A stretch of DNA of 64,000 nucleotides from Alphaproteobacteria bacterium. GTDB taxonomy: Bacteria > Pseudomonadota > Alphaproteobacteria > RF32 > CAG-239. Position 1 is the stretch's first letter. Each line of letters begins with the position of its first letter. Location: contig JAZNSB010000059.1 in NCBI GenBank assembly GCA_045590955.1, positions 2,760 through 66,759 on the forward strand, given 5' to 3'. The notes beneath the pieces were generated by a model. That model saw only the letters and a program-made list of their open reading frames with translations, had not been told where the DNA came from and did no database searches. Shown piece after piece: positions 1,860 through 34,799 of this stretch. The position numbers and the translations under genes are program-made.

Positions 1860-3883
1860 TATTTTTTTCCTTTCAAACATTCAACAATTTTATCAGAAAT
1901 TATTTCACATGTTTTATCCCAAGAAAACATTTTTGCTCTTTCCAAACCTTTTTTAACATATAGATCTCGCATTTGCTTATCATAATAAAAAGTTTTAAAT
2001 GCTTCCAAAACTTCTTCTTCGTTTTGTTCATCCACCAACAAAGCGGCATCTCCCACCACTTCCGGTAAAGAACTATTATTTGCACAAATAACAGGTGTCC
2101 CCGCCATCATGGCTTCCAGTGGAGGCATACCAAACCCTTCATACAACGACAAGAATATAAAGAACAACGAATGGCTATACAGAATATTCACATCCTCCAC
2201 ATCCACATACCCCAACGGCACAATATATTTGGCATATTTTTCATATTTATCGCCCAGATATTTTTTTAAGCCATCAACCAACTTTTCCTTACCATTTCCA
2301 CCCAATAAAAAATATAAGTCCGTTATGTTGTTTTTATCAATAAAATCAATAAAGTATTTCACACTACCAACAATGTTTTTGCGCTTATCATCCACAGCGC
2401 CCATATAGAAAATATATTTTGCTTCAAGATCCAAACTTGTCTCATATTTTTCAAACACAGCTCGTAATTGAACTGGATCATGCAACACCTTAAAGTCTTG
2501 AGCCGAGGAAATAGGCACAACACAAATATGGTCTTCCTTCATATTATCAAAGTATTTTAGGAAATCTGTTTTACTACAATTAGAATTTGCAAAATAGTAC
2601 GTATAAGGTGACAAATTATGATGGAAATCATAAAATACTTTCGTAAACGCATGTGGAAACCACCCATTATCAAACATCGGCATGGCATCATGCAACATAT
2701 AAAAAGAATTAAAGTGCTCAAACTGATTACTATGCGCAGGATTAAAATAACAATCATAGTTAGCTATGTTAAATTTTAAATTTCTAATGATACGATAATT
2801 TCCTCCTTTACCAAGTCTAAATGCGGGACAAATACTTTTGAGATTTTGAAATACTTTATCCTTTGTATAAAAATCAATTAAATAACTGGAACCTACCAAC
2901 AAGGTCACATCAAAACGCTCATCTTGTGCAAACTGTCTCAATAGATTATAGGCCACCCAATAGATACCACGCTTAACCTTTTCATCTTGATCCCCTAAAC
3001 GCAAAACTTCGGCATCAAAAAGCAATTTAATTTTTTTACCGACAGCTGAAAAGGATAATTTTTTCATTAATTCTGACAGCCGTCTTGAAGAATCCGAGTT
3101 GGGATAAATCTTATTTCTGCGCGTCGCATAAACATCTTCTATCAACCGATTAAGAAACAGATTCTTATCCTCCTCACTAATAGGATATTTATTAGGCAAT
3201 TCAGCAACAATGGTAATATACTTTATATAGTCCGCAACTTGTTCAACAGACCAAAAATCAGAATTCAAGCTTCCTTCTCTACGCATATAGTAATACTGAG
3301 CACAATCCATCACCTCTATTTTTTTGGCACAAAAAACAGCGTGAATTAAAAAGCTTGGATCTTCTCCCACCAACAAACCAGCCGGAAATTCTATATTATT
3401 TTTTACAATCAGTTCTTTTTTAAAAATTGCTGTTGTATATTGCCCTAAAAATTGATACTTATTAAGACGAATTCTACAATTAAAACAATCAATCACTTCT
3501 TTTCCATCTGGATAACGTATCTTGAGATCTGCCCCCTTCACAATATCTGCATCAGTTTCTTTGGCTTTGTTATACAGTTTTTCATAAAAATCCGGATCTA
3601 CAAAATCATCAGAATCAACAAACCCCAGATATTCACCTTGGGATTTCTCAATGGCCGTATTTCTTGCCACGGCTGCTCCATGATTTTTTTCAAAATCAAT
3701 TATTTTAATTCTGTTATCTTTTCCAGCATATTCTTGTAACAACTGCAAAGAAGCGTCTGTAGAACAATCATTCACACAAATAATTTCAATATCGGCAAGT
3801 GTCTGAGCAAGCAAACTGTCCAGACACTTTGACAGATATTTTTCTGTATTATAAACCGGAACAATAACAGAAACTTTGATCAT
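1859..3883 (-). CDS. Two-domain glycosyltransferase: N-terminal GT2 (GT-A) fused to C-terminal GT1 (GT-B)
   Basis: The N-terminus reads [43 protein letters not shown]...FVDSDDF (GT2, DxD). The C-terminus reads [31 protein letters not shown] (GT1 EX7E-like region). Total length is 674 aa. Confidence 0.7.
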
Positions 3884-4365: not shown

Positions 4366-5478
4366 TTAATTTTTTTTCATATTTTCACAAAATTGTCTCA
4401 AACATTTTACGTTTTCATTTATATCAGGACAAAGATTTATCTGATAAAACTTAAAATCTTTTAAGAAACCGATTAATTTTTGTATTGTTTTAATATCATG
4501 TGCATCTTGTGTCTGTTTTACTGTAGAATGTATCAATTGAGTAATTGCTCTGCCTTTTTTGCATTCCACAATAGATGGTTTTTCATCAGGCACAATTTCA
4601 GGGAACATACAAACTTTTATCGGATATTTATCTTTAAATTGGTTATGATATGCATCAATGTTTATTACATATTTGTCTTTTCTGGCATTATTGCACACAA
4701 ACTTTCCTTTAATATCATCATAAAGTTTGCCATACATCTTTGGAGACAAAGTAATAATTGAATAAATCGGATAAGAATATAAGTTTTGACCTTCTTTTTG
4801 CAAAATCAAATAATCATCTGAAACATATTCAAAGCCCTGCATCATGGCAAGCACGGCCAAAGTTGATTTACCTCTTTGTCCTCTGGCACAAAACAAAATT
4901 CCGTTATTATCCAAACCAACCACGGCACCATGCACCAAATTTGTTGTTTCCGTCTTCAAAATTTTATTAAACATTTGCACAAAAATATGACCTTGTTTAA
5001 TAAATTCTTCAAAGCTAAGATCTTTTACACCATAGTAATATGTATTTGTTTCAACATCATGAGCTTCAACAAAACCTTCTGGCATAAACCTGACCACCGG
5101 ATTATGTTTACTGTATTGTTCACACATCCATTCAACTTGCATTACTCCACCGGTAGCTTTGGTTAGCACCTGCTCCAATCTAAACCTTGTTTTAAGCGCT
5201 TCATTATTTTGTATTATTTCTTTTGTCAAAGAAATTGTATCTTTTTCATTCCACAACACAATTGTTGCAACGCAATCAAGCTTTTCATCTGTCATACTAT
5301 AAGATATCTGACGTTGCATCAACGGCAAAAAATCTTGATGATAAGACACAATCTTTACGTTAACAGGACCAAGCTTTACATATTTTTCAAAAGCAACTTC
5401 AGCATTTTTTTCAATATGCTGTCTCAAATTATCAATATAAGTCTTTATCTTAATCAAATTGTTTTCAGTTACCCTCAT
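4366..5478 (-). CDS. HPr-kinase C-terminal-domain-like P-loop protein (serine kinase-like)
   Basis: VHGAVVGLDNNGILFCARGQRGKSTLAVLAMMQGFEYVSDDYLIL parallels the HprK_C core (lHGvlv..G.GvLi.G.SG.GKSelaLeLi.rGh.LvaDD). The N-terminal 200 aa are unrelated to HprK. Confidence 0.5.
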   Translation of the reverse strand: MRVTENNLIKIKTYIDNLRQHIEKNAEVAFEKYVKLGPVNVKIVSYHQDFLPLMQRQISYSMTDEKLDCVATIVLWNEKDTISLTKEIIQNNEALKTRFRLEQVLTKATGGVMQVEWMCEQYSKHNPVVRFMPEGFVEAHDVETNTYYYGVKDLSFEEFIKQGHIFVQMFNKILKTETTNLVHGAVVGLDNNGILFCARGQRGKSTLAVLAMMQGFEYVSDDYLILQKEGQNLYSYPIYSIITLSPKMYGKLYDDIKGKFVCNNARKDKYVINIDAYHNQFKDKYPIKVCMFPEIVPDEKPSIVECKKGRAITQLIHSTVKQTQDAHDIKTIQKLIGFLKDFKFYQINLCPDINENVKCLRQFCENMKKN

Positions 5479-5479
5479 A

Positions 5480-6628
5480 TTATCCCCTATATATTTTCAA
5501 TACTAAATTTATAAGCTTTGGACTTTTATAGATTCTTTTACATATAAAATGTTTTGGCTTATACTTAACCCACTGTTTTAGCTCCTCAAAACTTTTCAAT
5601 GCATTTTTCAGCCTCAATTTTTTACACTTCATTTTTGCTTCATAAACAAACTTTTTATAAAAGAAAACTTTTTCATAATAAGGATATGTTTTCTTGTGCA
5701 AATCTTCATCATTTACAAACTCTGACAAAAAGCCGGGCAAAAGCATTCCAACAAACTTTGCAGCTAAAAACATTGGTGTCAGCGCATTAAAATTAATAGC
5801 AAGTTTTTTTACTTTATTTATATCAAATCCTTCTTGCGACATTAAAAACTGACAGTCAAAAATTGTGAAAAGCACTCCGGAAATTGAACAATTTCTATGC
5901 AAATTTTTTGTCAAATTACATAAAGCAATCAGAAACAAAACTTCATTGTCGGGCACTAATGTTTGTGTTCCAAAAACATTAGTTTGACGAGCACCGTCCA
6001 ACAGCATTGACAAATACTTTTTATCATAATCAATATCCAAATCCAAAAATCTGTGAATATCCAAAATTCCGGCGTCTGACCCAGGCAAATGCAAATCCAC
6101 ACTGTGAGCACCCTCTTCCTGCTCTGCTTCATATCCCATATCTCTGGCAATTTCCAAAGATTTTTCATATTTTGCATTATCCAAAATCAAAACATCAATA
6201 TCGCCCATATGCCTTGGCAAATCAAACCTCAGATGTTTCATTGCGCCACCTTTTATTATCATCGGCACAATATCGTGTTCGTTTAATTTTTTACAAATTT
6301 TTGTATAGTGAGCAAGCAATCCCAAATTTGCAAACCTAAAGAAATTCATCACACCGTTTAATCTGGGCAAAATTTCTTCCGGCCATTTCAGATTCGGATT
6401 CTGTTTTTTAACATATGCCAATAAAAGAGCTGTTTTGGCATCGTTTTCATCCAACTTCCAAACCTCAAACAATTTATCCAAATTTTCTTGAGTTTTTTCT
6501 TGAACAAACACAAAATCCATCAATCTTTTGTTTTTTGCAGAAACAATTTCTTCATAAAAACACATCAGCAGATTCTTTTCCACATCTGCCGCACTCTTAG
6601 TTTGCTTAAATACATTATCCAAATTCAT
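5480..6628 (-). CDS. Uncharacterised nucleotidyltransferase (PF14907/NTP_transf_5-like)
   Basis: MIIKGGAMKHLRFDLPRHMGDIDVLI has the G[GS]x9-13DxD nucleotidyltransferase signature. Its length and downstream helical region fit the family that co-occurs with PqqD and HprK homologues. It is the first gene of the operon, divergent from ligA. Confidence 0.45.
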   Translation of the reverse strand: MNLDNVFKQTKSAADVEKNLLMCFYEEIVSAKNKRLMDFVFVQEKTQENLDKLFEVWKLDENDAKTALLLAYVKKQNPNLKWPEEILPRLNGVMNFFRFANLGLLAHYTKICKKLNEHDIVPMIIKGGAMKHLRFDLPRHMGDIDVLILDNAKYEKSLEIARDMGYEAEQEEGAHSVDLHLPGSDAGILDIHRFLDLDIDYDKKYLSMLLDGARQTNVFGTQTLVPDNEVLFLIALCNLTKNLHRNCSISGVLFTIFDCQFLMSQEGFDINKVKKLAINFNALTPMFLAAKFVGMLLPGFLSEFVNDEDLHKKTYPYYEKVFFYKKFVYEAKMKCKKLRLKNALKSFEELKQWVKYKPKHFICKRIYKSPKLINLVLKIYRG

Positions 6629-18227: not shown

Positions 18228-19001
18228 TTAGTATTTTGTAATCATATAATCCAATCTGTTTTCATCTGCAAATAAAATTTTAATTCCCACACCTTTTATG
18301 TTTACCAGTTCTTGTCCCGGATCTACATAAATGTTTTCAAATTCTCCTTTGTCTGCATTTTGTTTTGAATAATCCAAATATAGGAACAAAATTTTTCCTA
18401 ATTCCATACCACCATATTTAATTTCAAACCCTTTAACAGGATGAGATTGCACCGCAGAAGACTTTCTTACCGGTACCATACGAAGTTGTCTTGGTGTTGG
18501 AATATAATCTTCTCCAATAATAATCAAACTTGAACCTTTAAGTTCTCCGCAAATTCTGGCAAATGTTCCGTCTTCATTTAAGAGCAACACCACATTTTCT
18601 ATATTTGTTGGAAGCAATGCATATCTGACACCGTCAACAGTCACTTCTCCAACAATTTTATATGTTTGGTTTTTATAATACTTAAACGGAACAGACACAT
18701 TTCCAATTACCCCGTCAATGGAAGGTCTGACAAAATTTTCAGCATATTCATCTCTTTGCATGATTTTGTTTACTGCCACCGGATATCCCACCATAGCACT
18801 GTGCACGGTATTTATATCCGGCTCCATTTCCGTAACATAATCTGATGATACTTTTTTCATATCCCAATCATACAAAGAAACTTTATACCCTTTGAAAAAA
18901 GCAAACATCTGTTTAGAATCCCAAACATCATGACTTTTTGCACTTATGCAAGAAGACAAAACAAGCATACAGCTTAAAAGAACAAATTTTTTCATTACCA
19001 T
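18228..19001 (-). CDS. Hypothetical lipoprotein
   Basis: A signal peptide with an LSSC lipobox (MKKFVLLSCMLVLSSC), and no recognisable domain. Confidence 0.4.
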   Translation of the reverse strand: MVMKKFVLLSCMLVLSSCISAKSHDVWDSKQMFAFFKGYKVSLYDWDMKKVSSDYVTEMEPDINTVHSAMVGYPVAVNKIMQRDEYAENFVRPSIDGVIGNVSVPFKYYKNQTYKIVGEVTVDGVRYALLPTNIENVVLLLNEDGTFARICGELKGSSLIIIGEDYIPTPRQLRMVPVRKSSAVQSHPVKGFEIKYGGMELGKILFLYLDYSKQNADKGEFENIYVDPGQELVNIKGVGIKILFADENRLDYMITKY

Positions 19002-19078: not shown

Positions 19079-20761
19079 ATGAGGAAAATTATGCAAATAT
19101 CCGACATTAAAGACCTATTAAAGACAAAAAAACTTGATGCATACCTTATAAACAGAGGCAATGTTTTCATAAATTCAGATATTTTACCGCAAGAAAACAT
19201 CATAAACAAGCTCACCGGATTTACCGGAAGCAACGCCACTCTTATTGTTTGCCAAAAAGACTGCTATTTATTCACGGATTCCAGATACGAACTTCAAGCT
19301 CCCATTGAAACCAAAGGAAAAAAAATAAAAGTTATTTGCGGATATTTTTTAGATTGGCTCAAAGAACAAAAAGAAGACTTCAAACTTGGTATCAATCCAT
19401 GGACTTTAAGCATAGACACTTTTAACAAAATCAAAAAAAGAGCGCCACAAATTCAAATTGTAAAATCAGATTTATTAAATATCGGAAGCAACATATGCAA
19501 AAAAACTTTTAACGTATTTGAACATCAAACAAAGTTTTGTGGCATCAAGTCAAAAGAAAAAATCAAACAAATCAGGACCTTTATAGAAGAAAAAAATCTT
19601 GATGCTCTTCTTTTGTGTTCTCCGGAAAGCGTTTCTTGGTTGTTAAACATCCGTTCAAACTGCTTACCTTGCACGCCGGTTGTTAGGGCCTTTGCTCTCA
19701 TCACAAAACAAGGCAAAACGCAAACTTTTGCGCAGAATTTAAAAAATCTTGATTATGCCGATTTTAAAGATTTACCTCAGGCTTTAGAAAAATTTACAAA
19801 CATTGGTATTGATGAAAAACAAACCCCTCTTTTTATTAGTGATTTTATTGGAAGATACAAAAGAATTTCAGACCCTGTAATGGACTTAAAGGCTGTTAAA
19901 AACAACACAGAATTAAAAGGCTTTAGAGCATGCCACATAGAAGATGGGGTTGCCGTAACCAAACTTCTTTATTGGCTCAAACACTCTTGGCAAAACAAAA
20001 CAGAGCTTGATGTTGTAAAAAAATTATTTTCTTTACGTCAACAAGGCAAACTGTTTTTTTCCAACAGTTTTGAAACTATTGCGGGTTTTGGTCCAAACGG
20101 AGCCATTGTTCATTACAGTCCATCAATAAAAAGCAACAAAAAGCTTGGAAACGGACTTGTTTTAATAGACAGTGGCGGACAATACTTCAACGGCACCACA
20201 GACGTCACACGCACCATTTGCCTTGGCAAACCCACAAAAGAACAAATCCAGTGTTTTACAGCGGTTTTAAAAGCCCATATTGCTTTAAGCTCTGCATATT
20301 TTCCGCAAGGCACACAAGCCGGCAAATTAGAAAGTTTATCAAAATCGCAACTTTGGAAAATTGGCAAAAATTATATGCACGGCACAGGACACGGTGTTGG
20401 ACATTTTTCCGTAATTCATGAAAATCCGCCCAGCATATCAAGCTCTAAAAACCTGCAACCACTAAAAGAAGGCATGGTTACTTCTATTGAACCGGGATAT
20501 TACAAAGAATCAAAATTCGGCATAAGAATTGAAAATTTGGTAGAAATTTGCAAATGTTCACAATCTTTTGAATTTGAGATGCTAAAATTTGAGCCTCTAA
20601 CTTTAGTTCCTATTGATAAAGAGCTGATTGATGCATATTTATTGAGCAAAGAAGAAAAGGCATGGCTCAATGAATATCATAAAAAAGTTTTTGCAAAAAT
20701 TTCAAAAAGACTATCCAAAGAAGAACGTTCTTGGCTTGCTGACGCTTGCAGTCCTATTTAG
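19079..20761 (+). CDS. pepP: Xaa-Pro aminopeptidase (M24B, aminopeptidase P-like)
   Basis: A creatinase-like N-terminal domain plus an M24 core with HGTGHGVGHFSVIHE and IEPGYY. The tail ...AWLNEYHKKV...SWLADACSPI is characteristic of the family. Confidence 0.8.
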   Translation: MRKIMQISDIKDLLKTKKLDAYLINRGNVFINSDILPQENIINKLTGFTGSNATLIVCQKDCYLFTDSRYELQAPIETKGKKIKVICGYFLDWLKEQKEDFKLGINPWTLSIDTFNKIKKRAPQIQIVKSDLLNIGSNICKKTFNVFEHQTKFCGIKSKEKIKQIRTFIEEKNLDALLLCSPESVSWLLNIRSNCLPCTPVVRAFALITKQGKTQTFAQNLKNLDYADFKDLPQALEKFTNIGIDEKQTPLFISDFIGRYKRISDPVMDLKAVKNNTELKGFRACHIEDGVAVTKLLYWLKHSWQNKTELDVVKKLFSLRQQGKLFFSNSFETIAGFGPNGAIVHYSPSIKSNKKLGNGLVLIDSGGQYFNGTTDVTRTICLGKPTKEQIQCFTAVLKAHIALSSAYFPQGTQAGKLESLSKSQLWKIGKNYMHGTGHGVGHFSVIHENPPSISSSKNLQPLKEGMVTSIEPGYYKESKFGIRIENLVEICKCSQSFEFEMLKFEPLTLVPIDKELIDAYLLSKEEKAWLNEYHKKVFAKISKRLSKEERSWLADACSPI

Positions 20762-21197
20762 CCTGTTTTTTGTTTTTCAGAGCAAAGCAAGGCTTATATA
20801 TCAGGCGGGATTTTCTCCTGACCAAAGCCTGGAGCAATACTTTGATATCACCAGAAGATATTGGCAAAAGCCGATTATTTTTGTATTTTTTAATGGCAGA
20901 CCATGTTATATGTGTCCCCAAACCATAAACAGCATATACAATGTTTGGCAAAACAACTTTGCAGATTTGTATGACTATTTTGAAATCAACTACTTTCAAG
21001 ATCAAGAATATAATTTTATCCAAAACTATCAATTACGTGCACCTTTAAGTATTGTTTTGCAAAACGTAAACAATGGCGTTATGACAAATTGGGTAAAAAT
21101 AGACAACCCTCAAACCGGCTATCTTCCATCTCCCATATACAAAGAAAGATTAATAAGCGACATAAACAATTTCTTTGGTCATATTCCGAGTTTTTAA
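20670..21197 (+). CDS. Hypothetical small CxxC protein (possible thioredoxin-like/secreted); the real start is probably internal, around the TTG near 20734
   Basis: The ORF overlaps pepP by 92 nt. The hydrophobic segment LLTLAVLFSLFFVF is followed by a CYMC motif. The 3' boundary is firm; the 5' boundary is uncertain. Confidence 0.3.
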   Translation: MNIIKKFLQKFQKDYPKKNVLGLLTLAVLFSLFFVFQSKARLIYQAGFSPDQSLEQYFDITRRYWQKPIIFVFFNGRPCYMCPQTINSIYNVWQNNFADLYDYFEINYFQDQEYNFIQNYQLRAPLSIVLQNVNNGVMTNWVKIDNPQTGYLPSPIYKERLISDINNFFGHIPSF

Positions 21198-21404
21198 ATT
21201 GAACCGCACGAACTCACTGTAAGCCTTAAAAATCAAGGGTTAGCAAAGAATTTTGCTAACCCTGTCCAAACTGGCTGCGCGTGGTGTACAGTCATCGAAC
21301 TTTTACAACAACATCGCAAAGAAGTTATTTCTATTAAAGATCAACTCCGCTATGTTAGGGAAATATTGGCAGCATGATCCTCATAAACAAAGTATATCAG
21401 AATA

Positions 21405-21433
21405 TTGACAGGAATATAGTTTTTTGTTATAAT
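21405..21433 (+). promoter_or_regulatory. Consensus sigma70 promoter: TTGACA, 17-nt spacer, TATAAT
   Basis: ttgaca(21405-21410) ggaatatagtttttttgt tataat(21428-21433). Downstream is a perfect SD aggagg (21466-21471), 6 nt before the ATG at 21478. Confidence 0.6.
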
Positions 21434-21477
21434 TTCTATAATTAGTATAAAAGGAAGTTTTTCTTAGGAGGTTTAGA

Positions 21478-22320
21478 ATGTATTACCACTTTGAGCGAGA
21501 ATTGAAAAATATCCAAAACAATATCCAAGATAATGAAAAATATTATGACAAAGATAAAGTAAGGATGTTTGGTGATAAGCTTAAATTAGCCGATTTATGC
21601 ACGAGGATATATTTTGAAAGAGAAAAGTTGTTGCGTGAACAAAAAGAAACAACGGATGCAGAAAAACTGCAAAAATTGAAAGAGCAAACTGCAAACTTAG
21701 ATCAATTTATAGAAGAAAATAAATTAAGAGAAAAGAGGGATGAGGCTTTTGAATATATTCGAAAAACAAGTCCCATGTATAAAAAACTTTATGAGTCTGG
21801 AGCGAGGTTAGGAATTGACTACATTGTAATACCTGACGGCGCAGCATATCACTATCCCGCAACATCAATTGATCATAGACCAGATAGATGTTTTATTGAT
21901 TATGAACGATTAGGATATGAAAAAGGAAAGCCTTGTGAAAATTACAACAGTGGGGCTTGTGTTGTTTTTGACGGGGAAGATTTAATATTAACGTGTGATT
22001 GTTCATTATATGAGTCTTTAACAAGAAGTTGTAAATATGAAACACGGGGAGGCATTCCTTTTTACAATGGTGGTCAGGAGATGTATTTTGATAGTGTCCC
22101 TTTAGAAAGACAGTTTGAAGGAATGATAATACAGACCAAAGGAAATAATTATCAACTTGTTCCTTTAGGACTTGGAGACCAAAGAAGCTATAAAGATGAA
22201 ATGCTTTGGAAGTTGTTAAGACAAAAGAGACATAATCAAAAAGGCTTTCATGGACCAAGAAAAAGACGCCCTTTACCAACAGAGGACAGGTTCAACGTCA
22301 GAGGAGGGGGGAGAGAGTAG
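21478..22320 (+). CDS. Hypothetical protein, GC-richer than its surroundings, with an N-terminal coiled-coil and a Cys-rich C-terminal half; an orphan cargo gene
   Basis: A 280-aa ORF with a consensus promoter and SD. Its composition (gggg/agg-rich, ending ...RGGGRE) is atypical for the window. Confidence 0.5.
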   Translation: MYYHFERELKNIQNNIQDNEKYYDKDKVRMFGDKLKLADLCTRIYFEREKLLREQKETTDAEKLQKLKEQTANLDQFIEENKLREKRDEAFEYIRKTSPMYKKLYESGARLGIDYIVIPDGAAYHYPATSIDHRPDRCFIDYERLGYEKGKPCENYNSGACVVFDGEDLILTCDCSLYESLTRSCKYETRGGIPFYNGGQEMYFDSVPLERQFEGMIIQTKGNNYQLVPLGLGDQRSYKDEMLWKLLRQKRHNQKGFHGPRKRRPLPTEDRFNVRGGGRE

Positions 22321-22374
22321 TTGGTTCAAGGATTGTAAAGTGTTATAATTGTTTGAACCATGAATTTCTGATGA

Positions 22375-22410
22375 AAAAACAAGAGGTTAGATATCAAAAT
22401 CTAACCTCTA
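22375..22410 (-). terminator. Rho-independent terminator read on the minus strand
   Basis: Minus strand: gaggttagat-tttgat-atctaacctc (10-bp stem) followed by ttgtttttt. Confidence 0.55.
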
Positions 22411-22416
22411 TTCAAA

Positions 22417-22434
22417 TTGGCTGCTTGACCTGGA
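22417..22434. repeat. 18-bp direct repeat of the tRNA-Gln 3' end (ttggctgcttgacctgga); att-like
   Basis: It is identical to 22570..22587, which covers the 3' acceptor/T-stem of the tRNA-Gln gene. Confidence 0.7.
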
Positions 22435-22539
22435 AGTATTGAGCTTTTCAAGCTCAATGATCTTACCGCGGGCAGACATATACCTGCCCGCATTGCGATT
22501 CCGAACGGTTGGTTCGAGCCCAATGATAAAACAGCCAAC

Positions 22540-22568
22540 AAAAAAAGCACCACAAGGGTGCTGTTTTT
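22540..22568. terminator. Bidirectional hairpin terminator immediately 3' of tRNA-Gln
   Basis: gcacc-acaag-ggtgc with A-run/T-run on both sides. Read on the minus strand it is gcacccttgtggtgcttttttt, nearly identical to the terminator after tRNA-Thr. Confidence 0.55.
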
Positions 22569-22570
22569 AT

Positions 22571-22644
22571 TGGCTGCTTGACCTGGATTCGAACCAAGAT
22601 TAACGGAGTCAGAGTCCGCTGTCCTACCATTAGACGATCAAGCA
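22571..22644 (-). tRNA. tRNA-Gln (anticodon CUG)
   Basis: Minus-strand RNA TGCTTGATCGTCTAATGGTAGGACAGCGGACTCTGACTCCGTTAATCTTGGTTCGAATCCAGGTCAAGCAGCCA. It has a 7-bp acceptor stem, a GGTTCGAATCC T-arm, an anticodon loop CT-CTG-AC, discriminator G and encoded CCA. The 3' half is very similar to E. coli tRNA-Gln. Confidence 0.85.
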
Positions 22645-22705
22645 ATTATAATTTTCTGTGTTTTTATGCTTTTTATCATACTTTGTCAATAATTTTATTT
22701 AAAAA

Positions 22706-22745
22706 AACAACCGGCCACTCATTTCTGAGAAAGCCGGTTTGTTTT
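22706..22745 (-). terminator. Terminator of the M15 peptidase gene
   Basis: aaccggc...gccggtt inverted repeat followed by a T-run on the minus strand. Confidence 0.5.
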
Positions 22746-22748
22746 TCA

Positions 22749-23312
22749 CTAAATGTCAAAGACATTAAAGGCTCCGTACCAAATGTGGTCTGAAATATCC
22801 ACGTTTGGGAACCTTCGCTCAAACTCTGCTTGCGACATATACACCGCAAAATAGACATTTGGCATGACAACGCTGTTGTCTCTCTTGCCTCTAAAATAAC
22901 CGGACCTATCCAAAATGCAGGTGTGAGACACCTCAGCAGGATTTGGATCTTTTACATCCAGAGCATAACAGCTATGATGCACCTTGCGCATCATAATGTT
23001 ATTGATCTTACTTGAGGTTGTCCATGGCACATAACCATAAGTCAATCCCTCGCCTGTCAGTCCCAGTTCTTCGGCTTTTTGTTTAATCAACTCCAAGCCC
23101 TCGGCCTTATTAGCCATTGTTGCAATAGGGAAAATGCTCACAATCACAACCTCTCCGTCACGATTGGATATATCCAATGCAAACTCCGGAAAGTCTCCTC
23201 CTCTATATTCACTGAGGTCTCCCTCAAAATTTTCCGGAAACTCATACTCGCTTTTTTTAAGCTGAGGGAGCTGAGTGGACAACAAGTTCAACAATACTAA
23301 ATGCTTTTTCAT
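22749..23312 (-). CDS. Secreted peptidase M15-like (VanY-type D,D-carboxypeptidase / L-Ala-D-Glu peptidase fold); possible cell-wall hydrolase
   Basis: A signal peptide, then VHHSCYALDV aligns with the VanY SxHxxGxAxD motif (G replaced by C), with a later DISDHIW His. The gene lies between two tRNA genes. Confidence 0.45.
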   Translation of the reverse strand: MKKHLVLLNLLSTQLPQLKKSEYEFPENFEGDLSEYRGGDFPEFALDISNRDGEVVIVSIFPIATMANKAEGLELIKQKAEELGLTGEGLTYGYVPWTTSSKINNIMMRKVHHSCYALDVKDPNPAEVSHTCILDRSGYFRGKRDNSVVMPNVYFAVYMSQAEFERRFPNVDISDHIWYGAFNVFDI

Positions 23313-23438
23313 AGCTTAATTTTTTTAAAACAAACATAATTATTGTGATAAACACATATTTTCGTATTTTGGAGAATAACATCATTTTTTATAAAAATCA
23401 AGCATCTTTATTTTTTTTTGTAAAAAAATAATTTTATA

Positions 23439-23467
23439 TTGACAACAATAAAACAGTAATATATAAA
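23439..23467 (+). promoter_or_regulatory. sigma70-like promoter for tRNA-Thr
   Basis: ttgaca(23439-23444), a 17-nt spacer, tataaa(23462-23467), 13 nt upstream of the tRNA 5' end. Confidence 0.5.
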
Positions 23468-23480
23468 CTCAAGCACAAAC

Positions 23481-23556
23481 GCCGACATAGCTCAGTTGGT
23501 AGAGCAACTGATTTGTAATCAGTGGGTCCGGAGTTCAAGTCTCTCTGTCGGCACCA
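23481..23556 (+). tRNA. tRNA-Thr (anticodon UGU)
   Basis: GCCGACATAGCTCAGTTGGTAGAGCAACTGATTTGTAATCAGTGGGTCCGGAGTTCAAGTCTCTCTGTCGGCACCA. A GCCGAYATAGCTCAGTTGGTAGAGC-type 5' half, anticodon loop TT-TGT-AA, and encoded CCA. Confidence 0.85.
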
Positions 23557-23565
23557 TTAAAACAA

Positions 23566-23594
23566 AAACGCACCTTTGTGGTGCTTTTTTTGTT
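23566..23594 (+). terminator. Rho-independent terminator after tRNA-Thr
   Basis: gcacc-tttgt-ggtgc followed by ttttttt. Confidence 0.6.
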
Positions 23595-23797
23595 TTAAAT
23601 CGTGTTGATTTGAGGTTCGAATTTCCGACCCACTTGGTGTCGGGGCGAGGCAGAAAAAAGCCAAAAGTAATTGGCTTTTTTCAACGCAGGTTACGCTTTT
23701 GTTAGCTTGTGAGCAAGTGGCAACGACGCGAAACAAGCGTTACAAAGGCGGTGACCGAAGTGAGTTAGTAAGCCGAAGGCGAACTTACGAACAAGAA

Positions 23798-23824
23798 CAA
23801 GTCTCTCTGTCGGCACCATTAAAA
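23798..23824. repeat. 27-bp direct repeat of the tRNA-Thr 3' end (caagtctctctgtcggcaccattaaaa); att-like
   Basis: It is identical to 23536..23562. It is followed by the hairpin tccccctttcatggggga plus a T-run at 23825..23850. Confidence 0.7.
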
Positions 23825-23984
23825 AAATCCCCCTTTCATGGGGGATTTTTATTTTAAATAACATTTGATTTTTACAATAAAATAGGCAGAACCACCAAGA
23901 AAAGCAGACGAAAACACTATTGCACCATTATAAAAAAAGATATATAATCAAACAAAAATCAATTATTATAAATAAATTTAAATT

Positions 23985-24443
23985 ATGAGAATCTTTTCAT
24001 TCAGGAAACCCATTGTTATCAATGGAGAAAACATCGTGATTAATGATTTAGCATTCAATCACAAATACAAAAAAGAAAAAAATTGCCTTATTGTTGTAGG
24101 CAAAATTAAGGATTGTACAATCTCTTACAGAGCTGTCTATGACCTAAACGGCAAGTTTATGTTTTTAAAACTATACAAACATAAACGCCTCTGTGCTCTC
24201 GTTTCTTGGAAACAAGAATACGACATTGAAGATGTTGAAACGATAAACAAAGATGGCAACAGAAACATCGTTACCAGCAAATATCTTTCAACAGCTAAGA
24301 TTCAACACAAGTTAGTAGAAAAGTCATTCTACACTTGTGTAAATAACGAAGTCCATAACAAAGTATTCCGATTAACAGATGGAAAATGGACTTCAGAAGG
24401 AGATTTTCCAAAAAGTCATTTAGCCTACTGGATTTCTCAGTAA
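23985..24443 (+). CDS. Hypothetical protein (152 aa)
   Basis: A clean ORF followed by a strong terminator at 24453..24486. No recognisable domain. Confidence 0.4.
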   Translation: MRIFSFRKPIVINGENIVINDLAFNHKYKKEKNCLIVVGKIKDCTISYRAVYDLNGKFMFLKLYKHKRLCALVSWKQEYDIEDVETINKDGNRNIVTSKYLSTAKIQHKLVEKSFYTCVNNEVHNKVFRLTDGKWTSEGDFPKSHLAYWISQ

Positions 24444-24545: not shown

Positions 24546-25637
24546 TCATCTAATATTCAAACGTGACACCAGAGCTTTTTGTTCTGCAAATTCTTTTGCT
24601 GTCATCACATTTTTTCCTGCCTCTAAAGGCTTAAACAAGTGGTCATTAGCCGTATAATTTACAAGACCATCATCTGCCCTGGGGGAAAGATAGCGATTGA
24701 AGTTGTGAAAAGGTGTTTCTGTAAGCTGCATAGTCGTCCCTATTGGCATAGAAAAATCCTCTCCATTACGCCAATTTGCATATTTTTTCATATCTTCATT
24801 AGAGCTTGGATAGATTTTTTCAAAACCTTTCATATAACTAAACAACCTTGCCTCTGTATCTTGAAGTTTTGGCTCTGTAAAATAAGAACCTTTTGCTTCC
24901 ATTTTAATTTCTGGCATTCTTTTTTGTGCGCTTTCCATCAAAAGAGCAATCTCTGCCAAAGCTTTATCTTTTTCTGCATCAGACATACTTGAACCAAAAT
25001 GTTGCATACGAACAATGTTTTGATAAGCGGTATGCATTGCCACAGAAAACTGCTCATTTTCAAGCTTATCATATAGATTTTCCGGTTTTATTTCTTTTTG
25101 AAGTTGTGGAGTCTCTAATCCCTGCAATTCTTTTATACGCTTACGGGCATGCCCTGTCCCCCTGACTACTGCATCTATTTTTCTAACAAGTGAAGATGAT
25201 GCCATAACATTTGCTTTTACTCTCTCAAATCTTTCTTTTTGTACTTGCCTGTAAGTCTTTTTTCCAACAAGAAATTCCCCCATCAATATCATATCTTTAC
25301 CATAATTTTCAGATAATTTCTGAAAGAAATTTCTTTTTTTCTGTGGCTTTACTCCCATATAAGTTGTCTTTCCGTCGGAAGTTTTTACTTTTACGGCAGC
25401 AGAAAGATCATATTTTGCAGCCATTTCATTGTCTTTACTCTGCTCTTTTATTGATGATTTCAAAATTTCAAAAGACTGTTTAGCTACATCAAAAAATCTT
25501 TGTGCTCTTTCTTTATCTCTTTCTCCAAGATCTTTACACGCCTCTTTAAAAGAGATTTTTCCCGCAGCAACATCACCCATCAAATATAAAAAATCTGCAA
25601 ATGTTGAATGTCTGGTAATTTTCTTTTCTTCTGGCAT
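24546..25637 (-). CDS. Hypothetical protein (about 360 aa, mostly helical, no signal peptide)
   Basis: A long ORF whose probable start is MPEEKKITRH (25637); the upstream ORF extension is hydrophobic. No recognisable family. It is divergent from an XRE regulator. Confidence 0.4.
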   Translation of the reverse strand: MPEEKKITRHSTFADFLYLMGDVAAGKISFKEACKDLGERDKERAQRFFDVAKQSFEILKSSIKEQSKDNEMAAKYDLSAAVKVKTSDGKTTYMGVKPQKKRNFFQKLSENYGKDMILMGEFLVGKKTYRQVQKERFERVKANVMASSSLVRKIDAVVRGTGHARKRIKELQGLETPQLQKEIKPENLYDKLENEQFSVAMHTAYQNIVRMQHFGSSMSDAEKDKALAEIALLMESAQKRMPEIKMEAKGSYFTEPKLQDTEARLFSYMKGFEKIYPSSNEDMKKYANWRNGEDFSMPIGTTMQLTETPFHNFNRYLSPRADDGLVNYTANDHLFKPLEAGKNVMTAKEFAEQKALVSRLNIR

Positions 25638-25684
25638 TGTCCACCTCCTATAACACATTACATATATAAATAAAATACCACAAA

Positions 25685-25702
25685 TGTTGACTAAAGTCAA
25701 CA
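25685..25702. promoter_or_regulatory. Perfect palindromic candidate operator tgttgac-taaa-gtcaaca between divergent genes
   Basis: A 7-4-7 inverted repeat in the 110-bp divergent intergenic region between the XRE gene and the 24546..25637 gene. Confidence 0.5.
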
Positions 25703-25746
25703 CCATTTAATTTTTAACATCTATAATGTTCAAAGGTAGGTAAACA

Positions 25747-29685: not shown

Positions 29686-30750
29686 TTACATTCTTTCAAA
29701 AAAGTTATCAAAAAATTCATTCAACAATCGTGGATGGTTTTCACTATTAAAAGCATCTGTAATAAACTTTTTAAGTTTCTCTTGAGAAATTCTTATTCTA
29801 AAGTCTTTTGGCGCGGCATTTTCTGCCCCTATAACTCCCATTATATTAAAATCTTCATCTATTTCTTCTTTTGCCAAAACAATGCTCATATCCGTAAACT
29901 TTAACATTCCTCGTGGAGGCAACCTCAAATCTGCTCTTGAAATAAGATTAATTTGTCCCTCAATGCCGGATACACTATCCATTTGATTATTCGCACTAAA
30001 GCGCACTTTATTATAATCCCCACCGGTTTCTCTGGTATTGCAAGACAAATAAATTTCTCTGGCGATTGCATTGCTGTTATTTTCTGCCGCCAACATAAAA
30101 CTGATTTTCACATATTTTTCAGGAGGATTATCAATACTTTTTGGATACAAGACATCTTCATCTGCATTTTCAATAATTTCAATTTTTTTATTTTCAATTA
30201 TTAAATCAATGTTTGGTTGCGGACGCTTTCCAAACATTCCGGCAATAACAGAATAAGGAGCCGGCACATTATTAGAGCCGGAACGAATATAAATTCTGTT
30301 ACCAACAGTTGACATAAGTGGTGCAGTCTCAGATTTTGGAATATATGTTGCAATATATCCATCTCCGTTAGCGTCGCTTGCAATAATGTGATTTCTTACT
30401 TTGTTATGAGAAGGCAACGTACAACCGGAAATTGCTCCTTCAAGCCAACTTAAAAAACGATGCACATTTTTTACTTTAACTTTTGCCTTTGCCACATCTC
30501 CAATTTCCACATCTCTGGAACATTCCACCCCCCAAACAATTACTCCTCCTTCAGAATTTCCAAATCCTGAAATTGCTTTGGCCAGGTTTTTTCTGTCATC
30601 TCTGTGCAGAGTATACATTTTTTGACCGGTAGAGGCAGCCTTTTTAAAATCTAAAAAAAGCTCTTCTGTTTGCAAATCAAGAATAAATTCATCTATTGCA
30701 TCTTCGCCAAAATATACCAAACGGTTAAAAATATCTTCTGCTCTGGACAT
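29686..30750 (-). CDS. AlbA_2 / Schlafen-like domain protein (putative ATP-dependent DNA-binding regulator)
   Basis: FLDFKKAASTGQKMYTLHRDDRKNLAKAISGFGNSEGGVIVWGV matches the AlbA_2 core. The start is chosen at MSRAEDIF, which has an aggag RBS. Confidence 0.5.
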   Translation of the reverse strand: MSRAEDIFNRLVYFGEDAIDEFILDLQTEELFLDFKKAASTGQKMYTLHRDDRKNLAKAISGFGNSEGGVIVWGVECSRDVEIGDVAKAKVKVKNVHRFLSWLEGAISGCTLPSHNKVRNHIIASDANGDGYIATYIPKSETAPLMSTVGNRIYIRSGSNNVPAPYSVIAGMFGKRPQPNIDLIIENKKIEIIENADEDVLYPKSIDNPPEKYVKISFMLAAENNSNAIAREIYLSCNTRETGGDYNKVRFSANNQMDSVSGIEGQINLISRADLRLPPRGMLKFTDMSIVLAKEEIDEDFNIMGVIGAENAAPKDFRIRISQEKLKKFITDAFNSENHPRLLNEFFDNFFERM

Positions 30751-30801
30751 ATTTTTTCTCCTGTTAAAGAATTTATGCCCATAATAAAACAAAAAGCTTA
30801 A

Positions 30802-33860: not shown

Positions 33861-34799
33861 ATGACAGAAACAAAAAAAGCAAGTAAAAACCGCACAATCA
33901 TTTTATCAAAAATTCAAGAAAAGATGCTGTCACCTGATTTACTCAGTCTGTCTAAACCGGCAACCGTTGCCCAACTCACAAATGCCACAATTAATCAAGA
34001 TTTAATGGACTGTCTTGATAAATTACCCAAAAAATTTATAGATTTGTTGTTTATTGACCCTCCATACAATCTAAACAAATCTTTTAACCAGCTAAAATTT
34101 AAAAAAACAGATGATGAGCACTATCAATCTTGGTTTGAAAGTTGGTTTGAAAAACTTATCCCATGCTTAAAACCAACCGCCTCAGTATATGTTTGTTGCG
34201 ACTGGGTTTCAAGCCCCGCCATATATAATGTTTTAAAAAAACACTTAATTATCAGAAATCGCATTACCTGGGAAAGAGAAAAAGGCAGAGGTGCAAAAAA
34301 CAACTGGAAAAACTGCTCAGAAGACATTTGGTTTGCCACAATGTCAGATGATTATTACTTTAACTGTGATGCCGTAAAACTCAAAAAAAGAGTTCTTGCC
34401 CCATATAAAGATAAATCCGGTCAACCAAAAGACTGGCAAGAAAGTGATAATGGAAAATATCGCTTAACACACCCGTCAAACCTGTGGAATGACATCTCTA
34501 TCCCTTTTTGGTCAATGCCTGAAAACACAGATCATCCCACTCAAAAGCCTGAAAAACTTGTTGCAAAAATCATTTTAGCATCAAGCAAAGAAAAAGACTT
34601 TGTCTTTGACCCGTTTTTGGGCTCGGGCACAACCTCTGTTGTTGCAAAAAAATTAAATCGCAAATTCTGTGGTATTGAGCAAGACAAACACTTTGCCCTC
34701 ACTGCCCTTCGCAGATTGCAAATGGCAGAAGAGAACAAAGAAATACAAGGCTATCATGAAGGCCTGTTTTGGGAACGCAATTCACATCCCAAAAAGTAA
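33861..34799 (+). CDS. Beta-class N6-adenine/N4-cytosine DNA methyltransferase, CcrM/M.HinfI-like, orphan
   Basis: FIDLLFIDPPYNL (motif IV), HPTQKPEKLV and DPFLGSGTTSVVAKKLNRKFCGIE (motif I) align closely with Caulobacter CcrM (…DPPYNL…AHPTQKPEALL…[24 protein letters not shown]). CcrM's C-terminal 80-aa extension is absent. No restriction gene is adjacent. Confidence 0.75.
   Translation: MTETKKASKNRTIILSKIQEKMLSPDLLSLSKPATVAQLTNATINQDLMDCLDKLPKKFIDLLFIDPPYNLNKSFNQLKFKKTDDEHYQSWFESWFEKLIPCLKPTASVYVCCDWVSSPAIYNVLKKHLIIRNRITWEREKGRGAKNNWKNCSEDIWFATMSDDYYFNCDAVKLKKRVLAPYKDKSGQPKDWQESDNGKYRLTHPSNLWNDISIPFWSMPENTDHPTQKPEKLVAKIILASSKEKDFVFDPFLGSGTTSVVAKKLNRKFCGIEQDKHFALTALRRLQMAEENKEIQGYHEGLFWERNSHPKK

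Follow-up and report, generated by a model that had tools for sequence, protein, structure and literature searches.

Putative structured tRNA-linked repeats behind tRNA genes of gut Alphaproteobacteria resemble the TLRs of Escherichia coli

Introduction

The tRNA-linked repeats (TLRs) of Escherichia coli have reportedly been known since 1978, with Egan and Landy (1978) and Rudd (1999) named as the sources. They carry several names, including RtT RNA in Rfam (RF00391, rttR behind tyrT/tyrV) and rrA, rrB and rrF behind 5S rRNA. [quoted passage not shown] The rrB unit lies between the terminators T1 and T2, has an 18-nt repeat with a spacing of 150 bp, is made by read-through, and is bound by Hfq and CsrA (PMC8144298). 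Except for rrA/B/F, no function is known for the TLRs that follow tRNA and rRNA genes in E. coli (PMC8144298, Stenum et al. 2021). A functional small RNA is also excised from a tRNA trailer in the case of 3'ETS-leuZ (glyW-cysT-leuZ; cited in PMC8144298), which, unlike the units described below, lacks a duplicated tRNA end, an inverted tRNA half and any array. A tRNA 3' end that occurs as direct repeats is the textbook signature of integration (PMC9897764).

The locus described here lies in a 64-kb stretch of DNA, analysed as a whole and referred to as the window. An earlier note on this DNA had interpreted it as the scar of an integrative element at tRNA-Gln that left a single cargo gene, or alternatively as a small RNA derived from a tRNA 3' end. 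On sequence comparison, the arrangement appears to match the long-known and largely unexplained one of E. coli, and to belong to a large family located behind many tRNAs of gut Alphaproteobacteria.

Locus features

The tRNA-Gln(CUG) gene that had been placed on the minus strand was found there by both ARAGORN and Rfam. Its 3' end is duplicated exactly, as had been noticed, with a length of 19 nt in place of the 18 nt first given: ATTGGCTGCTTGACCTGGA occurs as a direct repeat at 22416-22434 and 22569-22587, the two copies are 153 bp apart, and 0.01 such repeats are expected per window by chance. The unit formed in this way begins behind the tRNA with the conserved terminator T1, which is followed in turn by an inverted and diverged copy of the 3' half of the tRNA, by hairpins and by the exact tRNA 3'-end copy. 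Two perfect hairpins between the copies (22438-22458 and 22468-22491) and a minus-strand terminator beyond the far copy (22409-22382) had been described and are present. T1 lies directly behind tRNA-Gln and was absent from the earlier note. Each repeat copy is followed by a terminator. The unit is thus flanked by two terminators, and no promoter-like site was found inside it. By eye, the palindrome centred on T1 shows an AAC...GTT frame. A covariance model, R1, matches the window unit at 22417-22538 with 97.5 bits, and the 135-nt unit, with a GC content of 0.46, is the sole GC-richer part of the locus.

A further, weaker match to the repeat had been pointed out at 21272-21300. Its approximately 7 nt (TGGCTGC) are not significant alone, and comparison with related loci identifies it as a real core copy followed by a trailer terminator, T3, which is probably the native tRNA-Gln trailer.

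The same architecture is present behind the neighbouring tRNA-Thr(UGU), where a repeat of 30 nt with one mismatch (23536-23565 and 23798-27) had been missed. The 64-kb window contains two copies of T1, both behind tRNAs. The features of both loci are listed in Table 1.

Table 1. Positions of features at the tRNA-Gln and tRNA-Thr loci of the window
Feature	Position	Strand	Remarks
T3 terminator	21226..21263	-	Leader CCA-GTTTGGACAGGG, homologous to T2 and to the L149 distal trailer
Core copy 3 (GCAGCCA)	21272..21278	-	Last unit boundary of the array
Conserved ORF remnant (...LLQQHRKEVISIKDQLRYV..LAA*)	21272..21377	+	Homology to L001 and L077 begins exactly at TGGCTGC
Degenerate core-like copy GCTGCCAAT	21365..21373	-	Between cargo promoter and ORF remnant; weak on its own
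Cargo segment	21405..22320	+	Promoter 21405-21433, SD 21466-21471, 280-aa ORFan 21478-22320; convergent with the tRNA
T2 terminator	22374..22409	-	Trailer-type; related to terminators behind other tRNA-Gln arrays
Core copy 2	22416..22434	-	Exact copy of tRNA-Gln 3' end; forms the 3' end of the unit
Three internal hairpins	22438..22516	-	22502-22516, 22468-22491, 22438-22458; compensatory changes in 9 Gln-type units
Inverted, diverged tRNA-Gln 3' half	22511..22538	-	Acceptor 3' strand and T arm; closing stem with core copy 2
Unit start: A-rich spacer and T1	22537..22570	-	Hairpin 22546-22562, U-run to 22537
Core copy 1	22569..22587	-	Last 17 nt of tRNA-Gln and 2 nt of trailer
tRNA-Gln(CUG)	22571..22644	-	CCA encoded; ARAGORN; Rfam tRNA 60.4 bits
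tRNA-Gln upstream promoter	about 22650-22690		Own promoter, TTGACA ... TATAAT
tRNA-Thr(UGU)	23481..23556	+	Divergent, 1 kb away, same architecture; ARAGORN; Rfam
Thr-type unit	23557..23818	+	Structured body with internal bidirectional terminator
T1 of Thr-type unit	23570-23584	+	Almost identical to T1 of the Gln-type unit
Inverted tRNA-Thr 3' half	about 23603-23635	+	
Direct copy of tRNA-Thr 3' end	23798-23818	+	
Second terminator	23823..23850	+	After the Thr-type unit

Related loci

The same layout was found behind Gln, Thr, Ser, Val, Gly and Arg tRNAs on approximately 20 related contigs, mostly from gut or rumen Alphaproteobacteria MAGs, with most of these loci retrieved using patterns derived from the unit itself. 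The T1 sequence is nearly identical behind tRNA-Gln, tRNA-Thr and many tRNAs of the related genomes, and is nearly invariant beside eight different tRNA ends. A search with the T1 pattern gave 25 genome loci, approximately 17 of them from gut or rumen Alphaproteobacteria MAGs, in which T1 is invariably preceded by a tRNA or a copy of a tRNA end (Thr, Gln, Ser three times, Val and Gly). The R1 covariance model recovered 14 Gln-type units and gave no significant match on the tRNA-sense strand beyond these. A pattern scan of metagenomes added at least 6 further Gln-type units, with at least 7 relevant loci among the matches listed for what is a loose pattern.

The units range in size from 135 to 260 bp. 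Each tRNA in the window is followed by one unit, and 2-3 units occur in six of the related loci (L018, L020, L029, L030, L051 and L113). Tandem arrays are present in L018, L020, L021, L029, L030 and L051, those of L020 and L021 being fractional. In the related loci the terminal tRNA-end copy is often followed by a second terminator, or by the next unit. The bodies of the units vary between tRNAs, yet are kept across species at the same tRNA. No Rfam family was assigned to the units, either at the gathering threshold or at E<=10. The arrangement is found again at no fewer than 7 other tRNA-Gln loci of related genomes, where the repeat is contained in a longer structured unit, and this recurrence argues against the mobile-element scar.

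Predicted structure

In the alignment of Gln-type units, 91.8 % of the cells at predicted pairs are paired, compared with 35-47 % when the partners are slid, and double changes are seen at 8 pairs (23 cells). The covariation score is 0.187 vs 0.100, a value reached in none of 500 shuffles, and the alignments for the Gln-type and Thr-type folds are small, comprising 9 and 4 mutually related sequences. The Thr-type fold has a 17-bp closing stem in which G.U pairs are frequent. There are 34 G.U cells vs 8 A.C cells, which favours the tRNA-sense strand, and this strand gives the more stable fold in all 13 family units compared. For E1 the predicted values are -64.8 kcal/mol (z -7.0) for the sense strand vs -57.3 for the antisense strand. 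The CCA can also pair within the closing stem, unlike that of a tRNA acceptor end. Since the 153-bp unit is kept across species with compensatory changes, it is not decaying DNA. A folded single strand of DNA could also account for the covariation in the hairpins and for the excess of G.U cells.

Cargo gene and array joints

The 280-aa ORFan lies in another segment of the array, of roughly 1.1 kb, which has copies of the 3' end of tRNA-Gln at its boundaries and a related trailer terminator behind each of them. Its promoter was correctly read as TTGACA-17-TATAAT, matching at 12/12 positions with a TG extension, and so was the AGGAGG Shine-Dalgarno sequence located 6 nt ahead of the ATG at 21478. 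The gene had also been described as GC-richer than its surroundings, which it is not: its GC content is 0.349, against a mean of 0.359 ± 0.029 for window genes, its GC3 is 0.27 vs 0.30, and it ranks 23rd of 58 in codon usage. In composition the gene is therefore not foreign to the window. No match to the encoded protein was obtained in Pfam, PHROG or PADLOC. An identical entry is present among 5.8 billion proteins, with only 3 close homologues, and the AlphaFold model is poor (pLDDT 46.5). Homologues of the gene are found between like units elsewhere (L001).

The order of the segments differs among genomes. In the window it is tRNA, unit, cargo with ORF remnant, and trailer; in L077 it is cargo with remnant, unit, and trailer; and in L001 it is unit, ORFan, remnant, unit, orphan gene, and partial unit. 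In the ORFs tested, no recombinase was found to account for any of this reshuffling. Pfam gave no integrase or transposase in about 27 of the 62 window ORFs (every ORF of 280-450 aa and several others), IntI was absent from the ORFs scanned, and no recombinase recurred among the 25 commonest families of the 58 ORFs flanking related loci, a comparison that a single integrase could escape.

Comparison with E. coli TLRs

The likeness to TLRs extends over several features. The unit lies directly behind the tRNA and in the same orientation, at tRNA-Gln and at tRNA-Thr alike; the repeat and spacing of the Gln-type unit (19 nt, 153 bp) are close to those of rrB (18 nt, 150 bp); one to several tandem units occur per locus, with one per tRNA in the window and 2-3 in relatives; and two terminators surround the unit, as they do in rrB. 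In the RtT consensus, too, the fold is closed by pairing between the tRNA-end copy and a segment on the 5' side, and RtT also has the T-arm region of the tRNA as a diverged, inverted copy. The differences are that the host belongs to a low-GC gut lineage of Alphaproteobacteria and not to the Enterobacteria, that one nearly invariant T1 is common to units behind eight tRNAs, and that the arrays also hold protein-coding cargo.

The RtT model (RF00391) gave no match at E<=10 in window positions 21150-24000 or in 8 related loci; in E. coli it detected 4 units at 133-137 bits. The best nhmmer hit to the E. coli units was not significant (E=5.3), pairwise local scores against E. coli TLRs were inside the shuffle range, and the R1 model did not match the E. 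coli loci. As there is no significant sequence similarity, the likeness may be convergent.

Proposed origin and function

The anatomy of the unit, its family, the conserved fold with its strand bias and the shuffled unit order, all observed, are best combined by regarding the 153 bp at 22417-22570 (minus strand), which begin right behind the CCA of tRNA-Gln and extend to the second CCA, as a TLR-type unit whose RNA is made via read-through, and which is part of an array that recombines at tRNA ends. We give this reading a probability of about 0.55; transcription, processing and the mechanism of recombination are the parts that we infer. The unit would be transcribed from the tRNA promoter upon read-through of T1, by analogy with rrA/rrB/rrF, and the transcript would end at T2. 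The antisense segment would pair with the terminal copy and produce a closed, branched fold whose 3' end resembles a tRNA acceptor end. Because the unit presents the same 3' end as the tRNA, the enzymes of tRNA 3'-end maturation could release and trim it, and the product may then persist as a stable small RNA. Read-through could be rare, since T1 has the appearance of a competent terminator. In the DNA itself, the joints of the array would be the repeated tRNA ends, at which units and gene-bearing segments such as that of the 280-aa ORFan might be gained, lost and reordered by recombination. The small RNA suggested in the earlier note is close to this proposal.

Integration offers a different, and unlikely, account of the same arrays. 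The segments would be tandem remnants of tRNA-integrating islands, with a tyrosine integrase acting in trans or since lost, and the unit would be the conserved region next to attP, a DNA site in place of an RNA gene; each island would have supplied its own terminator for the tRNA, in a manner resembling cis-mobilizable elements. Genomic islands and cis-mobilizable elements do share with this locus the direct repeats of the tRNA 3' end, tandem segments, accessory or ORFan cargo, and the provision of a new 3' flank or terminator to the tRNA by each inserted segment. In the window the cargo gene lies between core copies with a trailer-like terminator behind each, as the single-gene scar of the earlier note would have it, the order of units differs among genomes, and the cargo of the family consists mostly of ORFans or accessory genes, e.g. 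MazG, UDG and radical SAM. The ends of the cargo unit share only 7-9 nt, which is too short for ordinary homologous recombination. However, no integrase or integrase remnant was detected in the window ORFs tested and none recurs among the 58 flanking ORFs, the units were not found in viral contigs, and the orphan gene is typical in composition. Remnants would not be expected to show compensatory changes and strand bias or to be conserved as these units of 135-260 bp are, and integrases of differing specificity would hardly leave the same T1 beside eight tRNA ends, many tRNA identities here sharing their neighbouring sequence.

The strand-specific fold, with its wobble pairs and bulges, and the AAC...GTT frame of the T1-centred palindrome also allow the units to be read as recombination sites. 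In single-stranded DNA, an imperfect hairpin recognised by its structure would arise from the tRNA end together with T1 and the inverted half of the tRNA, as in integron attC sites or the folded attP of CTX phage, and units and cassettes would be captured behind the tRNA. We regard such a gene-capture array as very improbable. Like attC and cassette arrays and the CTX phage attP, the family consists of structured imperfect palindromes repeated among mostly unknown genes (L001, L018 and the window); as with attC, structure is kept more than sequence and the fold is strand-specific. The end sequence follows the tRNA while the architecture is constant, and the units contain no recombinase. Against this, the arrays are anchored at a tRNA end and not at attI/intI, an integrase of the integron type was not seen, comparison of L077 with the window places the joint at or before CCA whereas that of attC is at G|TT, and the cargo genes have their own promoters and face against the array. 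To our knowledge, no system of this kind has ever been connected with the TLRs of E. coli. The broader idea that tRNA 3' ends anchor gene capture, with the units as recombination sites of an integron-like platform without a linked integrase, is quite improbable. If it were true, the units would be read as a folded single strand or via their antisense tRNA segment, ORFan cassettes could enter, leave and change their order behind the tRNA, and E. coli TLRs would be explained as well. It is a long shot, finally, that the units are a functionless by-product of slippage, unequal crossing-over or hairpin-primed template switching at a terminator behind highly transcribed tRNAs. Tandem and sometimes fractional arrays (L021 and L020 here, and 3.14 repeats in E. 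coli) and a palindrome centred on a hairpin terminator would be natural products of such events; compensatory changes that keep the hairpins, the recurrence of the architecture at many tRNAs and in a distant lineage, and bodies that differ by tRNA and, for a given tRNA, are kept across species would not.

Under the TLR-type reading, an architecture familiar from E. coli is now seen in a distant, low-GC gut lineage whose units have no detectable sequence similarity to those of E. coli, which points to either an old and widespread class or a solution that has arisen repeatedly in connection with the processing of tRNA 3' ends. The family provides leads in the invariant T1 behind many tRNAs and in the arrays that carry and reshuffle ORFan genes. 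In annotation, the units account for 'partial tRNA' copies that would otherwise be taken for prophage scars.

Several other kinds of element were considered and rejected. A phage origin was dismissed after the T1 pattern gave one unrelated viral contig and the unit-end pattern gave five viral matches, none of which was a unit according to R1; a 14-mer scan was non-specific. A MITE does not fit imperfect inverted ends that copy the resident tRNA, nor units that occur only behind tRNAs or tRNA-end copies, with 2 copies of T1 in 64 kb. In a miniature element of the IS200/IS605 type the unrelated end hairpins, the tandem arrays and the copying of the resident tRNA by the ends would be out of place. 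The TGG... at the start of the inverted half had suggested a retroelement with a tRNA primer-binding site; no reverse transcriptase was seen, and the inverted half is explained by pairing within the unit.

Duplicated end of tRNA-Gln

The 3' end of tRNA-Gln(CUG), ATTGGCTGCTTGACCTGGA, recurs behind the gene as an exact direct repeat of 19 nt, one more than the 18 nt claimed in the earlier note, and 0.01 matches of this length are expected per window by chance (shuffles). The tRNA itself lies where that note had placed it, and the two perfect hairpins between the copies and the terminator after the far copy (T2) are present as it had described. The repeat feature is real. An additional terminator, T1, which the note did not mention, directly follows the tRNA, so the repeat-bounded stretch, referred to here as the Gln unit, has a terminator on each side. 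Just past T1, the 3' half of the resident tRNA (T arm plus 3' strand of the acceptor stem) is repeated in inverted and diverged form.

The same layout is found behind a divergent tRNA-Thr(UGU) located 1 kb from tRNA-Gln, where the inverted half is that of tRNA-Thr and T1 differs from the Gln T1 at one base in 25. These are the only two occurrences of T1 in the 64 kb. Orthologues of the Thr unit are present at the related loci L015, L021 and, as three tandem copies, L018. In the third L018 copy (5440-5700), inserted sequence provides a good SD and an ORF of 34 codons (MRLTEQTRVIEVKRSLVGIVAIAKGELTNKNESL) that extends into the terminal tRNA-end copy.

Features of the tRNA-Gln and tRNA-Thr region
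Feature	Position	Strand	Remarks
tRNA-Gln(CUG)	22571-22644	-	CCA encoded; ARAGORN and Rfam agree
Direct repeat	22416-22434, 22569-22587		19 nt
Gln unit	22417-22570	-
T1 hairpin	22546-22562		directly behind tRNA-Gln
T2	22409-22382		terminator after far copy
Orphan gene	21478-22320	+	280 aa
Orphan gene promoter	21405-21433		12/12 score, TG extension
Core 3	21272-21278		GCAGCCA
Remnant region	21198-21377	+
175-aa ORF	20670-21197	+	no Pfam match
187-aa ORFan	22749-23312	-	no Pfam, PHROG or PADLOC match
Thr layout	23481-23850		262-bp unit (T1, inverted tRNA-Thr half, 30-nt copy of tRNA-Thr 3' end), then a second terminator
Thr internal terminator	about 23648-23686		bidirectional
ORF	23985-24443	+	no Pfam match
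ORF	24546-25706	-	no Pfam match
ORF	18228-19001	-	no Pfam match
Schlafen/AlbA_2-domain protein	29686-30792	-
N6/N4 DNA methylase	33861-34799	+

Related loci

A scan for the T1 pattern in one genome per species returned 25 loci, about 17 of them in MAGs labelled Alphaproteobacteria from the gut of sheep, goat, roe deer, mouse or human. T1 always stands behind a tRNA (Thr-UGU, Gln-CUG, Ser-UGA, Ser-GGA, Ser-CGA, Val-UAC, Gly-CCC and, from a metagenome, Arg-UCU) or a tRNA-end copy. Sequence downstream of T1 is strongly complementary to the tRNA end (z -3 to -10), and most loci have a direct tRNA-end copy 107-226 nt further on. Tandem arrays of two to three units occur at L018, L020, L021, L029, L030, L051 and L113, and tRNAs with T1 and no unit at L016 and L019. 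A covariance model built on the Gln-type unit minus T1 matched 14 units, all in tRNA-Gln arrays, and none among the units of other tRNAs, E. coli or viral contigs; its only further match in the window was a weak one (28.5 bits) on the opposite strand, overlapping the Gln unit. The T1 sequence also lies behind a tRNA in contigs binned as Clostridia, L006 (MAG, 3100-3260) and L027, and in L006 the T arm of that tRNA comes next in inverted form. Either these contigs have been misbinned or the family extends beyond Alphaproteobacteria.

Fold and strand

In an alignment of nine Gln-type units taken from different contigs, all share T1, several internal hairpins and a 16-pair closing stem in which the inverted half pairs with the tRNA-end copy at the unit's terminus. 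Pairing on this structure covers 91.8% of cells, compared with 35-47% when the partners are slid, and pairing is kept through two-sided changes at eight pairs (23 cells). The covariation score of 0.187 (0.100 in shuffles) was reached by 0 of 500 shuffles, figures that are supportive, not final, because the sequences are related and few. In the four Thr-type units the closing stem has 17 pairs and the branched body is conserved. The fold is biased towards the tRNA-sense strand, with 34 G.U cells against 8 A.C cells and the more stable fold on that strand in 13 of 13 family units; the window unit folds at -64.8 kcal/mol in sense (z -7.0) versus -57.3 on the other strand.

Comparison with tRNA-linked repeats

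[quoted passage not shown] The three units behind 5S rRNA lie between two terminators of their own, also named T1 and T2, with a repeat spacing of 150 bp, arise by T1 read-through and subsequent processing, and are bound by Hfq and CsrA; no function is known for the remaining TLRs, and an early claim for rtT was withdrawn (PMC8144298). The tyrT-tyrV and rrnB trailer sequences of E. coli were examined directly. In the Rfam consensus of RtT (RF00391) a 5' segment pairs with the tRNA-end copy and closes the unit, and the E. coli RtT unit also has the T-arm region of tRNA-Tyr in inverted, diverged form. With its copied tRNA end, closing pairing, inverted tRNA segment and terminators, the window unit has TLR architecture. 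Positions 21150-24000 of the window and eight related loci gave no RF00391 match at E<=10 in an Rfam search, so the unit is no member by score, and sequence homology to E. coli TLRs could not be shown with nhmmer, pairwise comparison against shuffles or the covariance model. The element belongs to a class that is known but unexplained; by analogy it may work like a TLR, as a new variant apparently unrelated in sequence to the E. coli units. The rrB unit of the rrnB trailer shares a GCGGGCAGG...CCCGC hairpin with the window unit (22468-22491) and GGATTTGAAC with a Ser-type unit of L029; the rrnB/window alignment scores at chance level, so the common motifs may be coincidence.

Array order and joints

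Read in the tRNA direction, the array consists of tRNA-Gln, core 1 (cores being copies of the tRNA-Gln 3' end), the unit, core 2, T2, the orphan gene and its promoter (directed against the tRNA), a degenerate core, a conserved 105-nt ORF remnant, core 3 and the terminator T3. The leader CCA-(A/G)(T/G)TTG(A/G)A(C/T)AG(G/A)G is common to T2, to T3 and to the distal trailer in L149, a different tRNA-Gln array. The remnant recurs in L077 and L001, where TGGCTGC is the exact starting point of homology to the window and the next element is a Gln-type unit, compared with T3 only in the window; the order of these shared pieces thus varies between loci. In L001 the order is unit, 299-aa ORFan, remnant, unit, orphan homologue and partial unit. 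At L018 the three units behind tRNA-Thr are followed by MazG-like, UDG-like and B12-radical-SAM genes, beyond which lie a short core and T1.

Most differences between the remnant and its copy in L077 fall on third codon positions, so it was recently coding; it lacks a start codon and is in frame with the upstream 175-aa ORF, beyond the TAA stop of that ORF. In L001 and L077 a 46-48-aa ORF (M(K)VVVFVGC...) could begin at a GTG within T1's reverse complement.

Interpretation

The unit is interpreted, with a probability of roughly 0.55, as a trailer RNA from T1 read-through whose repeated ends double as array joints. Transcription would read through T1 into the unit and end at T2, and, since the RNA carries the tRNA's own 3' end in a helix, it could be trimmed as a tRNA is. 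These repeated ends would also be the joints where the array gains units and gene segments and changes their order. Identity at the joints is as little as 7-9 nt, which suggests site-specific or microhomology-driven joining over ordinary homologous recombination.

Tandem remnants of integrase-driven islands are a less probable source of the array; Pfam gave no integrase or transposase (about 27 of 62 window ORFs; 58 flanking ORFs of related loci, among the 25 commonest families). An integron-like array with folded single-strand sites is improbable, and origin by slippage at the terminator, as a by-product with no function, is equally so. The scar idea of the earlier note survives for the cargo segment with the orphan gene only; its small-RNA alternative fits the unit.

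Orphan gene and neighbouring ORFs

The orphan gene has the consensus promoter reported before and an AGGAGG SD 6 nt upstream of its ATG. The supposed GC richness was not borne out: GC is 0.349 against 0.359 +/- 0.029 for 58 window ORFs, GC3 is 0.27 against 0.30, and codon-use distance ranks 23 of 58. The protein has no family match and only three close relatives (85-87% identity), and its structure model is confident for N-terminal helices only. Its C-terminus departs from the relatives right at the junction with the flank, the final ~12 residues being wholly unlike those of its two homologues (22260-22320 versus L001 1870-1925), so that homology breaks off within the ORF. On the plus strand, the gene has no good terminator of its own in 22321-22567. 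The transcript probably continues in antisense across the unit as far as the reverse side of T1 (then GTTTTTATT), which would make its 3' UTR perfectly antisense to the tRNA-Gln 3' end over 19 nt.

The gene that does stand out in composition here is the 187-aa ORFan between the divergent tRNAs (GC 0.43 and GC3 0.48, versus 0.36 and 0.30). ORFans are unusually abundant around the tRNA pair: several ORFs there lack a Pfam match, and those of them also scanned against PHROG and PADLOC gave none in either. The Schlafen/AlbA_2 and DNA methylase genes a few kb away may be defence-related.
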